Assembly (NCBI GenBank): GCA_045541795.1
Contig: JAZQJV010000018.1
Coordinates: forward strand, 118,236-182,235
DNA: 64,000 nt
Direction of reading: 5' to 3'
Source of the DNA: Patescibacteria group bacterium
GTDB lineage: Bacteria > Patescibacteriota > Microgenomatia > UBA1400 > PJMF01
Shown: positions 4,274-61,839 of the stretch, piece by piece
Layout: each line of letters starts with the position of its first letter
How positions within the stretch are numbered: the stretch's first letter is position 1
The notes under the pieces: generated by a model
Seen by the model: only the letters and a program-made list of their open reading frames with translations
Told to the model about the DNA's origin: nothing
Database searches by the model: none
Translations under genes and position numbers: made by a program

Positions 4274-4297
4274 CTTCCCGTCTCAAAAACTCCCCAA

Positions 4298-4364
4298 TCA
4301 TGCTATAATCAACCTCAAGTAACTGGGTTCGGATTTCCCGCCAGAAACCACCAAAAAATAGGAT
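4298..4364 (+). repeat. promoter-plus-leader repeat, copy 1 (TGcTATAAT 4301-4309; conserved 29-nt core 4324-4352)
   Basis: The core tgggtTcggatttcccgccagaaaccacc differs at one base from the copy at 6859-6887. Both cores lie 14 nt after their -10 box. No ORF follows this copy. Confidence 0.7.
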
Positions 4365-6815: not shown

Positions 6816-6903
6816 TTGCAAAAACAACTTCATACTGTTATAATCAGTTTCAAATAATTGGGTGCGGATTTCCCGCCAGAAACCACCCCAAAAAGATGGG
6901 ATT
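6816..6903 (+). promoter_or_regulatory. promoter-plus-leader repeat, copy 2 (TTGCAA 6816-6821, 17-nt spacer, TGtTATAAT 6836-6844; core 6859-6887)
   Basis: Consensus-like promoter followed by the conserved core tgggtGcggatttcccgccagaaaccacc. Possible helix GGGTG 6860-6864 / CACCC 6884-6888 and inner hairpin GCGG-atttc-CCGC. It precedes the zinc-ribbon/TM2 gene. Confidence 0.6.
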
Positions 6904-33512: not shown

Positions 33513-34127
33513 ATGCAAGATAAAGATGGACGCCAACTTGATCAAAAAACTATTGCCGCTAAAGTGAGCCGCCGGTTGCAGGCGTATTGGCTAGAATTTG
33601 TCACTGGTTTTTTATGGTGGTTCGTCGGTCATATCCCGTTTCACACCGTCCGCAAACTTTTTTACCGTCTTTCTGGCATACGTATCGGCCGTCATTCCAC
33701 CATTCATATGCGCGCGCGCATTTTTGATCCCCGTTTTATCACTATCGGCGATGACACGATTATTGGCGAACGCGCGACGCTTGATGGTCGCCGTCAACTG
33801 CCGGGCTCTGACAGCTATCTGTGCATCGGCAATCATGTGGATATTGCCTCGGAAGTGATGATTTGGAATAGTGAACATGATCTAAAAAGCCCTACTTGGG
33901 CGGCTCGTGAAGAGCCGGTAATCATTGATGATTATGTTTTTATCGGCCCGCGCGCCATCATCTTGCCGGGGGTCAGGCTGGGGCGGGGGAGTGTGGTCGC
34001 CGCGGGGGCGGTGGTCACCAAAGACGTGCCAGCCATGACCATTGTCGCTGGCGTCCCCGCCAAAAAAATCGGCGAACGTCAGGGAGCGCTTGATTATCAG
34101 CTCGGCCGGTATCGGCTGTGGCAATAG
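33513..34127 (+). CDS. hexapeptide-repeat (LbH) O-acetyltransferase with an N-terminal TM segment
   Basis: IGDDTIIGERA...IGNHVDIASEV...IDDYVFIGPRAIILPGVRLGRGSVVAAGAVVTKDVP..TIVAGVPAK. The ATG lies 6 nt after TGaTATAAT. Confidence 0.8.
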   Translation: MQDKDGRQLDQKTIAAKVSRRLQAYWLEFVTGFLWWFVGHIPFHTVRKLFYRLSGIRIGRHSTIHMRARIFDPRFITIGDDTIIGERATLDGRRQLPGSDSYLCIGNHVDIASEVMIWNSEHDLKSPTWAAREEPVIIDDYVFIGPRAIILPGVRLGRGSVVAAGAVVTKDVPAMTIVAGVPAKKIGERQGALDYQLGRYRLWQ

Positions 34128-34208
34128 TCATTCCCAATCAGTGACAGATTGGCAGGAATTTGGAATGGGAGAGCCAGCAAAATTGCGTCCCCTCATTTCC
34201 CTTTCTTG

Positions 34209-34217
34209 TGTTATAAT
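34209..34217 (+). promoter_or_regulatory. extended -10 promoter (TGtTATAAT)
   Basis: TG at 34209-34210 and TATAAT at 34212-34217. No ATG lies at leaderless distance. Confidence 0.5.
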
Positions 34218-34221
34218 AGCG

Positions 34222-34440
34222 ACAGCACAAGTACAAATTATTGCTGAAGGGAGACGTGAAGAGTTAACAGAAGAAAAATGAACCGCACCAACACGAAATT
34301 ACGATGGATGGCAATCGAAAGCGGAAAGAAGCGAGTGACGTATTCTGGCTTAAGTATAGGTTTTCGATTGAGGAAGCTGTTATAGCGACTCCTGAGATAA
34401 TTTGTGCTTGTGCGGGTCGGAGAGTCGCTCGTTTCTTTGC
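34222..34440 (+). ncRNA. unclassified structured RNA element (6S-like rod, cis-regulatory leader, or MITE-like inverted repeat)
   Basis: A 17-bp long-range helix joins 34225-34241 to 34397-34413 (16 Watson-Crick pairs plus 1 G-U). Supporting helices are 34250-34256/34386-34392, 34265-34270/34377-34382 and a 9-bp pair 34312-34320/34362-34370. A competing 8-bp hairpin 34384-34391/34422-34429 is followed by cgtttcttt. Confidence 0.45.
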
Positions 34441-34472
34441 GTCAGCATACCTTTTGCAGCTAGAAAGCACGT

Positions 34473-35684
34473 ATGAACGGGAAAATAGTGCCGGTGTTTT
34501 TGGCGGCAGTTTTACTTCTCCCCTTATGGAGGGGAGATAGGCATACCACAGGTACAGCCAGAGGGGAGGTGCAAGCAGCCAGTAGTGCCACCACCAAAAA
34601 ACTCAAAGACGTGGCGCTTGGTGAGGTTATCCAAATTGGTGTTACTAAGTACGTCAAGATCGCTGCCAATAGCTATCAGGCGGTAAAGCCGTATACCTGT
34701 GCTGACCCAGTACTCACTTATGCCGGTGCTAGCAAAAGTTTCACTTATACGGGGAACTATCAGACATTTACGGCATATGCTGGGTGCCAGTACCAGGTGG
34801 AGCTGTGGGGTGCACAGGGCAATGACAACGGTTCAGTACTTGGCGGCAGAGGCAGTTACACTGCCGGATTATTTACGCCAGACGGCACAAGCTCACTTTA
34901 CGTTTATGTCGGCCAACATCAACAGTCAGTGCTAGCAGCTTCCTTTAATTGCGGTTCTACCGGCCCCTTAAATCACGGCGGCGATGCTGTTGGCTACGGG
35001 GGCGGCGGTGCTACAGATATTCGCACCGTAAGCGGAACTTGGGATAATGAAAACTCACTGCGTTCCCGGATCATTGTCGCCGCCGGCGGTGGTGGCAGTA
35101 AAATCTGGGGCGGTTGTAATTCAGTCGGATCTCAAGAAGGGATTTTTGCTGGCGGTATTAGCGGCTATACTGGTCCAGGCTCTGGTTACGCACCCAATGC
35201 TTGCGTCGCCGGGACTGGCGGTACTCAAGTGGCTGGTGGCAGTGCCTCTACGTGTACTGGTAATGGTGGCACCAGAGCGAGTGCGGGCAGCTTTGGTAAA
35301 GGCGGCAATCCTGGCAGTACATATAGCGCCGGTGGTGGCGGCGGCTGGTATGGTGGGGGCGGCGGCACTGCTAGTCACTGTTATATTGCCTGCGGCGGTT
35401 CTGGTTCCTCTTACATCTCCGGCCACACTGGCTGCGTCGGCGTCACTTCACTAAGCGACACTACTCCCAAATCCGGCTGCACCACCGGTACGACTAATAA
35501 TGCCTGTTCGCTTAGCCCTACTGGTCTGAGCTTCACTGACACCGTGATGATTGACGGTGCTGGTTATTCCTGGACAAATGTAAAAGGATCACTTCAACAA
35601 ATGCCCAATCCTGCCGGCGGTTACTACGCGAGCGGCGTGGGTCATACCGGCAATGGTGCCGCCCGTATCACCCGCCTTAATTAA
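34473..35684 (+). CDS. secreted glycine-rich domain protein (Gly_rich family, ALK/LTK GRD-like)
   Basis: FTYTGNYQTFTAYAGCQYQVELWGAQG...GGRGSYTAG...LYVYVGQ...GYGGGGATDIRT...RIIVAAGGGGS...GGGGGWYGGGGG. It has an N-terminal hydrophobic signal or anchor. Confidence 0.7.
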   Translation: MNGKIVPVFLAAVLLLPLWRGDRHTTGTARGEVQAASSATTKKLKDVALGEVIQIGVTKYVKIAANSYQAVKPYTCADPVLTYAGASKSFTYTGNYQTFTAYAGCQYQVELWGAQGNDNGSVLGGRGSYTAGLFTPDGTSSLYVYVGQHQQSVLAASFNCGSTGPLNHGGDAVGYGGGGATDIRTVSGTWDNENSLRSRIIVAAGGGGSKIWGGCNSVGSQEGIFAGGISGYTGPGSGYAPNACVAGTGGTQVAGGSASTCTGNGGTRASAGSFGKGGNPGSTYSAGGGGGWYGGGGGTASHCYIACGGSGSSYISGHTGCVGVTSLSDTTPKSGCTTGTTNNACSLSPTGLSFTDTVMIDGAGYSWTNVKGSLQQMPNPAGGYYASGVGHTGNGAARITRLN

Positions 35685-50280: not shown

Positions 50281-50314
50281 GGGAAAAATTTCGACCTTAG
50301 TCGAAATTTTTCCC
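50281..50314. promoter_or_regulatory. perfect 15-bp inverted repeat (operator or stable hairpin) in a divergent intergenic region
   Basis: gggaaaaatttcgac-ctta-gtcgaaatttttccc, verified base by base. A TATAAT lies at 50259-50264 upstream. Confidence 0.5.
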
Positions 50315-57959: not shown

Positions 57960-58000
57960 AAAATTGCCTCTTGACAAATGACCCATAATGTGATATAATA
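57960..58000 (+). repeat. duplicated consensus promoter, copy A (TTGACA 57971-57976, 17 nt, TATAAT 57994-57999)
   Basis: 41 nt match 61687-61727 with 2 mismatches. It points into the 3' end of the minus-strand glycogen operon. Confidence 0.7.
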
Positions 58001-58049
58001 TAAGATATTATGATAGAAAAAAGAATAAAGAAAAATAATTATTATAGGT

Positions 58050-61686: not shown

Positions 61687-61727
61687 AAAATTGACTCTTG
61701 ACAAATGACCCATAATGTGGTATAATA
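61687..61727 (+). repeat. duplicated consensus promoter, copy B (TTGACA 61698-61703, 17 nt, TATAAT 61721-61726)
   Basis: See copy A. It is followed by a 27-codon sORF (61735-61818) and by a second promoter (TTGACA 61805-61810, TGgTAAAAT 61824-61832). Confidence 0.7.
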
Positions 61728-61839
61728 GGTAATTATGAAAGGTAAACAGGTGATAAAAAACAGTCAAAAATACTCGCGAATGTGGTCGGCGTGGATTTTG
61801 GGGGTTGACAATATGTGAATTGATGGTAAAATGCACACC

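Follow-up and report, generated by a model that had tools for sequence, protein, structure and literature searches.

The 64,000-nt stretch of contig JAZQJV010000018.1 analysed here (assembly GCA_045541795.1; hereafter the window) belongs to a genome of the Patescibacteria (Candidate Phyla Radiation, CPR), bacteria with small genomes that are largely uncultured and thought to be episymbiotic. It contains a strongly structured element on the + strand, which is the approximately 215-nt 5' leader of a gene for a glycine-rich secreted protein. It is a divergent member of a small, undescribed leader family that has two possible folds, a long rod and a terminator-like hairpin, and it probably switches the downstream gene on and off. 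On balance, the evidence favours a cis-acting terminator/antiterminator leader of the glycine-rich protein mRNA, with the 5' end of the transcript clamped in the rod state. The reading is based mainly on related leaders located upstream of homologous genes, in which both folds covary and compete for the same strand. An earlier interpretation made from the letters of the window alone (the sequence-only reading) had listed a leader or riboswitch with a terminator/antiterminator-like layout among its options. This option fits the data, since homologous and analogous leaders precede genes of the same protein family and the rod and terminator-like folds both covary.

Promoter and rod fold of the leader

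The extended -10 box and the 17-bp long-range helix with one G-U pair described by the sequence-only reading were both recovered on direct reading. The box is of the TGTGnTATAAT type, which is also found at other gene starts in the window (D1, D5, and D9). Judged from the spacing, transcription would start at about position 34224-34225, i.e., approximately 7 nt past the box. There, GCACAAGTACAAATTAT (34225-34241) pairs with ATAATTTGTGCTTGTGC (34397-34413) through 16 Watson-Crick pairs and one G-U pair (94% complementarity) and forms the closing helix P1. When at most one G-U pair is allowed, this is the sole long-range helix of at least 14 bp in the window, and a length of 17 bp was reached in 2 of 100 block-shuffled windows. 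Comparable runs are common if unlimited G-U pairs are allowed, and the 17-bp helix alone is therefore only moderately significant. Its location is more distinctive, as only one of the 71 extended -10-like sites in the window, the one considered here, is directly followed by a long-range helix of more than 11 bp.

RNA of the + strand from 34218 to 34445 folds as a rod with a predicted free energy of -69.8 kcal/mol (z -3.47), and none of 200 dinucleotide shuffles was as stable; the fold of the reverse strand is much weaker (-48 kcal/mol, z -1.75). The nested helices GGAGACG/CGACTCC (in P2), TAACAG/CTGTTA (P2b), and CAATCGAAA/TTTCGATTG (in P3), which had been found by eye, are all present in the minimum free energy fold, and the purine-rich strand between them is indeed largely unpaired over 41 nt. 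The 5' strand of P2 is a Shine-Dalgarno-like purine block, which reads GAAGGGAGA in the window and AAAGAAAGG in the related leaders described below.

Known RNA families did not account for the element. At E<=10, the only Rfam hit in positions 34100-34500 was a spurious one to mir-10, and the whole window gave only a single tRNA at the gathering threshold. The exclusion of the glycine, T-box, c-di-GMP, ykkC, and yybP families, previously argued from motif comparison, is thus in line with the absence of any Rfam match for the element. Rfam 15 (4227 models), searched in E-value mode, also gave no match in eight of the related loci, and none of the leader types described below matches an Rfam family.

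Two further observations concern promoter sequences in the window. The promoter-proximal sequence TGTTATAATAGCGAC (34207-34223) is partly repeated inside the leader as TGTTATAGCGAC (34378-34389), and two near-identical promoter blocks of the form TTGACA...TGTGRTATAAT (95% identity over 41 nt) are located 3.7 kb apart at 57960-58036 and 61687-61763.

Related leaders upstream of PF12810 genes

The glycine-rich protein carries a PF12810 domain, and the leader was compared with the upstream DNA of eight more distant PF12810 homologues from ruminant-gut Patescibacteria, with the nearest homologues (NCBI-only records) left out. Each of these homologues has a leader of 150-290 nt, in which an extended -10 box is followed by a long closing helix 5-7 nt past the last base of the box. 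This spacing places the closing helix at the expected transcription start. Three types of leaders could be distinguished: short leaders of about 110 nt (L068, L071/72, L073, and L081), long leaders without a terminator-like element (L074-76), and long leaders with such an element, designated T-type (L069/70, L079, and L080). The T-type leaders align block by block with the window element and have the -10 box 6-7 nt ahead of the closing helix. All four homologous leaders (the window element and its three T-type relatives) and the two analogous leader types precede PF12810 genes and have the same orientation as these genes. At least two homologous T-type copies (L069 and L079) exist in one genome (GCA_017431625.1), each directly upstream of a PF12810 gene, and the sequences of their closing helices differ at most positions.

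In the short leaders the closing helix has the consensus GAGUCYGACRG.../...CYGUCRGACUC, with compensatory changes at four pairs. The loops CUGCGYUAUGAYAG and CGUAAA are conserved, and a terminator-like element is absent. The closing helix of the L074-76 leaders starts 7 nt past TGGTATAAT, and these leaders contain the AAAGAAAGG block near the 5' end, without a T helix. When 573 promoter-like sites in all fetched loci were scanned, the L074-76, L068, and L073 leader types occupied five of the six top places, the remaining one going to an unrelated site in L030. L071/72 has a promoter not matched by the pattern used, and L069/70, L079, and L080, whose helices are interrupted, have low ranks.

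Covariation of two mutually exclusive folds

For the three T-type relatives, RNAalifold predicted a rod fold consisting of P1a, P1b, P2, a hairpin H1, and P3, arranged as a rod or junction. This fold has 50 pairs, is 96.7% paired, and contains 18 pairs with double changes; shuffled alignments had 6.8+-2.0 such pairs (0 of 500 as high), and slid controls no more than 3. Despite differing sequences, both P1a and P1b consist of canonical pairs in each of the four leaders, and within the three relatives double compensatory changes affect 5 of the 9 pairs of P1a and 4 of the 7 pairs of P1b. For P1, the comparison that includes the window was made by a per-sequence helix table; a MAFFT alignment anchored at the ends of P1 misaligns this helix by one gap. 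P2 of L069, L079, and L080 is formed by AAAGAAAGG(A/U)(A/U)A and U(U/A)(U/A)CCU, and the equivalents of P3, GCUUGAA/UUCAAGC in L069 and GCUCGG../..CUGAGC in L079 and L080, show compensatory changes. The window makes equivalents of P1a, P1b, P2, and P3 with different sequences and a different interior.

Applied to a sequence-only MAFFT alignment of all four leaders, RNAalifold selected not the rod, but a long 3' hairpin composed of the helices T, T2, and T3. In the alignment including the window, this T fold has 27 pairs (93.5% paired) and 12 double changes, compared to 4.9+-1.5 in shuffles (0 of 500 as high). The T helix alone accounts for 16 pairs in the alignment, 6 of which are compensatory, and has 15 bp in the window, where the pairs of T2 and T3 are rich in G-U. 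Its 3' side reads GUCGUG(U/C)G(C/UC)UUUUU(U) in the relatives, and a U tract follows the T stem in all four leaders (UUUUU(U) in the relatives and UUUCUUU in the window). The sequence-only reading had also noticed a competing hairpin in this region, formed by AGCGACTC (34384-34391) and GAGTCGCT (34422-34429). This complementarity does exist, but it is not conserved, and the 5' partner was misassigned: the conserved and covarying partner of 34424-34438 is 34325-34339.

The 3' strand of T3 (34399-34410) is located inside the 3' strand of P1 (34397-34413), and T3 and P1 are therefore mutually exclusive. T3, which uses this strand of P1, covaries with P1, and T and T2 cross P1-P3 topologically. 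Formation of the rod and T together as a pseudoknot was considered and appears unlikely, because T3 and P1 share nucleotides and a 21-bp helix between loop and tail would have to be threaded through the P3 loop. Covariation of homologous leaders, which had been proposed as a check of the element, thus supports both the rod and the T fold on the basis of three to four sequences.

The affiliation of the window element with its relatives differs between the two halves. A covariance model of the T domain, built from L069, L079, and L080 with the window left out, was searched against the whole window with filters off. The best match, with 22.9 bits and E ~0.003, covers the full length of the model and is located on the + strand at 34325-34440. 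The 5' half shares with the relatives the order of the helices, the position of P1 at the predicted start site, and the purine block in P2. On these sequence criteria, the window element is a divergent family member, whose 3' half is detectably homologous and whose 5' half is related by architecture and short blocks only. The second-best match of the T-domain model is a perfect 15-bp palindromic hairpin at 50281-50314 (GGGAAAAATTTCGAC-CTTA-GTCGAAATTTTTCCC) between two divergently oriented genes, which ranks in this place because it has the same A-tract/stem/U-tract form.

Proposed mechanism and points against it

The rod and T states of the full leaders have similar predicted energies, which are, respectively, -70.4 and -70.8 kcal/mol for the window, -69.3 and -68.0 kcal/mol for L069, -71.1 and -69.6 kcal/mol for L080, and -73.1 and -63.1 kcal/mol for L079. 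The rod has an advantage of 3-13 kcal/mol in transcripts that extend to the GC part of the T 3' strand; once the U tract is complete, rod and T differ by -1.6 to +4.9 kcal/mol. For the window, minimum free energy folding gives the rod at all transcript lengths up to 34460. As the predicted energies favour the rod at the decision point, the default state of the gene would be ON.

With transcription starting approximately 7 nt past the extended -10 box, the first transcribed bases would form P1. The 3' strand leaving the polymerase, from the 3' strand of P3 through that of P1, could then zip back either on the 5' domain or locally on the 5' strands of T3, T2, and T. In the rod (P1a-P1b-P2-P3) the 5' end would be paired, positions 34415-34438 would be single-stranded, and the Shine-Dalgarno region would be free, which would permit read-through and expression of the gene. 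In the T fold the 3' strand of P1 would be incorporated into T3, and the hairpin would zip via T2 and the 15-bp T helix up to the U-rich tract, resulting in a structure resembling an intrinsic terminator that would turn the gene OFF. Shifting the balance to T would require a putative effector, which might occupy the purine block or the 5' strand or make the junction less stable. Candidates for this role, between which the data do not discriminate, are the 30S subunit, proteins, small RNAs, and small molecules. A base-paired 5' end is known to stabilise mRNA against 5'-end-dependent decay, and the rod-paired 5' end would also have this effect here. Being common to both other leader types, clamping of the 5' end may be the ancestral function.

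It seems unlikely, although conceivable, that these leaders constitute a new class of effector-sensing RNA switches specific to Patescibacteria, which would respond to a ligand, protein, or RNA and control variable glycine-rich surface proteins. The divergence of P1 and T3 between paralogues (52-80% identity for two copies in one genome, against 92-100% in the promoter region and 92-98% in the first ~80 nt around the start codon) could provide a paralogue-specific "address" and could allow paralogues to be switched individually, for example in a mutually exclusive or phase-like expression of surface variants.

Several observations weigh against a terminator/antiterminator switch. The family is supported by four distinct T-type sequences from a narrow lineage. 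A rod covariance model of the three relatives misses the window element and recovers only P3 (34313-34370; 6.1 bits, E 5), and an nhmmer profile of the same relatives has no match in the window. With about 85 nt enclosed, the T hairpin is atypical of intrinsic terminators, and T3 is weak in L080. The pairing between the A tract and the U tract itself covaries, which is also compatible with a purely structural helix. The window has an interrupted U tract, and at the decision point the predicted energy of its T fold lies 5-13 kcal/mol above that of the rod; this copy may therefore attenuate weakly or not at all. Furthermore, neither the L074 leader type nor that of L068, L071, L073, and L081 has a T-like element, indicating that termination is not general among these leaders.

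Alternative explanations

One alternative is that the leader is a constitutive structured 5' untranslated region (UTR) acting solely as mRNA stabiliser. The helix beginning at the first base would shield the mRNA, coding for an abundant surface protein, against decay that depends on the 5' end, and the T helix would be a structural or processing element (e.g., for RNase III) rather than a terminator. This explanation, which we consider rather unlikely, agrees with the helix found 5-7 nt past the -10 box in all three leader types, including the two lacking a T element, with the rod predicted for every transcript length up to 34460 in the window, and with the Shine-Dalgarno-like purine block near the 5' end. 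However, it leaves unexplained why a second fold that is incompatible with the rod (T/T2/T3) covaries and why a U tract is present after every T stem, and the conserved loop blocks exceed the need of a simple protective hairpin. Stabiliser and switch functions are compatible with each other.

An independent small RNA of approximately 215 nt, either 6S-like or trans-acting, would end at the T terminator, and the gene would be transcribed by incidental read-through. In favour of this are the separate promoter of the element, the pairing of its 5' and 3' regions, and a terminator-like end located about 35 nt ahead of the gene. Such an RNA is nevertheless very unlikely for several reasons. No match to 6S or any other Rfam family was found at E<=10. 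The closest genome lacks the element at the syntenic locus (see below), and the homologous copies, at least two in one genome, are always located directly upstream of a PF12810 gene in the same orientation. Reading of the sequence between the element and the ATG revealed no second promoter. The 6S-like option of the sequence-only reading is further weakened by the asymmetric internal loop, with 41 nt in its 5' and 6 nt in its 3' strand, unlike the two-sided central bubble of 6S RNA, and by the multi-branch junction in the relatives.

At the DNA level, inverted repeats of 17 bp around 155 bp, ahead of a member of a variable multi-paralogue surface-protein family, could also belong to a miniature inverted-repeat transposable element (MITE), which had been suggested before, or to an inverton that phase-varies the surface-protein gene. 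A search for copies detected none besides the element in the 64-kb window and no nhmmer match in the first 67 loci fetched, and a direct repeat flanking 34225-34413 is not visible in the sequence. Moreover, the promoter lies outside the repeats, the repeat sequences differ between copies of the same genome, and the imperfections are G-U pairs on the + strand, three of them in L074 and one in the window. The fold of this strand is also far more stable than that of the - strand. A DNA element would not require the covariation seen in the internal helices P2, P3, and T. Taken together, these data make a MITE or inverton extremely improbable. Hardly more credible is an mRNA for a small protein, involved in leader-peptide attenuation or representing a type I toxin mRNA with a long-distance interaction of its 5' and 3' ends. 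The rod does contain an open reading frame (ORF) of 35 codons (34278-34385; MNRTNTKLRWMAIESGKKRVTYSGLSIGFRLRKLL), and the T 5' strand a conserved (A/G)UGAC with an upstream purine run. However, the 35-codon ORF is not conserved in the homologous leaders and its peptide is not hydrophobic, a 31-codon ORF of L070 starts upstream of the promoter, and a 3-nt periodicity of conservation was not seen by eye. Read by hand from the conserved AUG/GUG of the T 5' strand, the ORFs of L069, L079, L080, and the window differ in frame and in length (25, 13, 4, and 16 codons, respectively), and a leader peptide or small toxin was therefore rejected.

Locus, controlled gene, and leader coordinates

The positions of the leader features, the controlled gene, and the other leader types are compiled in Table 1.

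Table 1. Features of the structured leader and of the related leader types (window positions unless a locus is named).
Feature	Position	Strand	Sequence	Remarks
Extended -10 promoter	34209-34217	+	TGTTATAAT	Read in sequence; without good -35
P1 5' strand (rod closing helix)	34225-34241 (P1a 34225-34233, P1b 34234-34241)	+		Starts at predicted RNA 5' end
Purine block, Shine-Dalgarno-like	34246-34256	+	GAAGGGAGACG	P2 5' strand is 34249-34256
P2b 5' strand	34265-34270	+	UAACAG	Pairs with 34377-34382; window only, no clear equivalent in relatives
Purine/A-rich strand, 41 nt	34271-34311	+		Mostly unpaired in rod; H1 hairpin with C-rich loop here in relatives
P3 5' strand	34312-34322	+	CAAUCGAAAGC	Pairs with 34360-34370
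T 5' strand	34325-34339	+	AAAGAAGCGAGUGAC	In P3 loop in rod state; pairs with 34424-34438 in T state
T2 and T3 5' strands	34343-34362 (T2 34343-34350, T3 34351-34362)	+		T3 pairs with 34399-34410 in P1 3' strand
P3 3' strand	34360-34370	+	GUUUUCGAUUG	Pairs with 34312-34322
P2b 3' strand	34377-34382	+		In minimum free energy fold
P2 3' strand	34386-34393	+	CGACUCCU	Pairs with 34249-34256
P1 3' strand (switching strand)	34397-34413 (P1b 34397-34404, P1a 34405-34413)	+		Common to P1 (rod) and T3
T2 and T 3' strands	34415-34438 (T2 34415-34422, T 34424-34438)	+	GUCGCUCGUUUCUUU (T)	GC-rich stem half, then UUUCUUU
Shine-Dalgarno-like motif and start codon	34462-34467 and 34473-34475	+	AGAAAG and ATG	Homologues: GAAAGG 5-7 nt ahead of ATG
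Controlled gene	34473-35684	+		403-aa secreted glycine-rich protein, PF12810 ALK_LTK_GRD domain
Short leader family	L068 3829-3945; L071 2829-2945; L072 1866-1982; L073 2830-2945; L081 1322-1440			Upstream of other PF12810 genes
Third leader type	L074/L075/L076 1236-1417			Ahead of P0016 gene; 180-nt rod, 17-bp closing helix with three G-U

In the window, dnaG, rpsT, lepA, and a hexapeptide acetyltransferase gene precede the element, which is followed by the glycine-rich protein gene. Annotation of the protein with PDB and NCBIfam gave nothing beyond PF12810. It belongs to a multi-paralogue family, and the window protein (P0001) shares one 289-kb contig with the paralogues P0035 and P0046. The PF12810 glycine-rich proteins form a mosaic, multi-paralogue secreted family and are likely cell-surface components.

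The closest species representative is the metagenome-assembled genome RGIG2556 from goat gut, whose LepA is 89% identical. At its locus (L001) the order rpsT-lepA-acetyltransferase is kept and a convergent gene follows directly; neither the RNA nor the glycine-rich gene is present. Relatives of the acetyltransferase in GTDB genomes likewise keep this order, with the RNA and the glycine-rich gene absent. The absence from the syntenic lepA-acetyltransferase locus of the closest genome indicates that the element moves together with the glycine-rich gene, unlike a housekeeping RNA of fixed location. A metagenome scan with the glycine-rich protein yielded relatives with at most 57% identity over most of the protein, apparently mostly of other, low-GC lineages, and none of them had this leader. 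The viral contigs searched contained no relatives and no match to the pattern.

The paralogous loci L069 and L079 form a mosaic. The region from -590 to -271 is 92-100% identical, the structured leader 52-80%, and the region from -38 to +41 92-98%; within the coding sequence, the central part is 35-50% and the C-terminus 95-100% identical. In L070, which stems from another assembly, the P0022 cassette is bordered upstream by the neighbours found in L079 and downstream by those found in L069. This pattern suggests that cassettes were exchanged between the loci or that the 320-bp repeat led to misassembly. Small CdiA_C (PF18451) toxin-like ORFs adjoin PF12810 genes in three unrelated contigs (L068 3504-3788, L073 4372-4755, and L080 756-1145), which hints at a location of the glycine-rich proteins in polymorphic-toxin or contact-dependent neighbourhoods. 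In RGIG2556, the adaptation module of a type II-A CRISPR-Cas system (Csn2, Cas2, and Cas1; L071 5753-7137) is found 1.6 kb downstream of a PF12810 gene.

Elsewhere in the window, two 75-nt direct repeats with 79% identity (4284-4358 and 6819-6893), each with a -10-like box and GGGT(T/G)CGGATTTCCCGCCAGAAACCACC, flank a 2.5-kb segment with two minus-strand genes. These repeats may stem from the duplication of a leader or promoter, or they may be attachment sites bordering an inserted island.

Significance and comparison with known systems

To our knowledge, few regulatory RNAs have been described in Patescibacteria, and a full-text literature search found nothing relevant. The covariation of both alternative folds makes the leaders analysed here a useful case for studying how expression platforms evolve. 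A real switch would give access to the way in which Patescibacteria regulate surface variation and would define a new candidate RNA family; if only the stabiliser explanation holds, the element is an ordinary structured 5' UTR.

The element resembles 6S RNA in its size of about 200 nt and rod-like shape, in the pairing of its 5' with its 3' region, and in its large internal loop. It differs from 6S RNA by the missing Rfam 6S match, the linkage to a gene, the presence of several copies per genome, the internal loop of 41 versus 6 nt, and the absence from the nearest syntenic locus. 5'-terminal stem-loops that stabilise mRNA are represented by the hairpin of the ompA 5' UTR and by STAB-SD of Bacillus thuringiensis cryIIIA. 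The leader resembles these stabilisers in having a helix that begins no more than 1-2 nt from the predicted 5' end and a Shine-Dalgarno-like purine block near this end, and in preceding a gene for a probably abundant surface protein. In contrast to both systems, it is far larger and more complex, with conserved internal helices and a covarying alternative fold, and in the rod its Shine-Dalgarno-like block is not exposed, but base-paired (P2).

The terminator/antiterminator leaders, which comprise riboswitch expression platforms and attenuators dependent on a protein or tRNA (e.g., T-box, PyrR, and LicT/RAT), provide the third comparison. The leader of the window differs from these in matching no Rfam family, in the considerable length of its terminator-like hairpin (approximately 115 nt; T, T2, and T3), whose 5' strand is located inside the rod domain and not downstream of it, and in the controlled gene, which codes for a variable surface or secreted protein instead of a metabolic or transport function. 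The fundamental organisation is the same: a cis-acting 5' leader with its own promoter adopts two exclusive folds that compete for one switching strand (the 3' strand of P1), a GC-rich stem and a U tract form the end of one of these folds, and the sequence of P1 varies between representatives while the alternative pairing covaries along with it.

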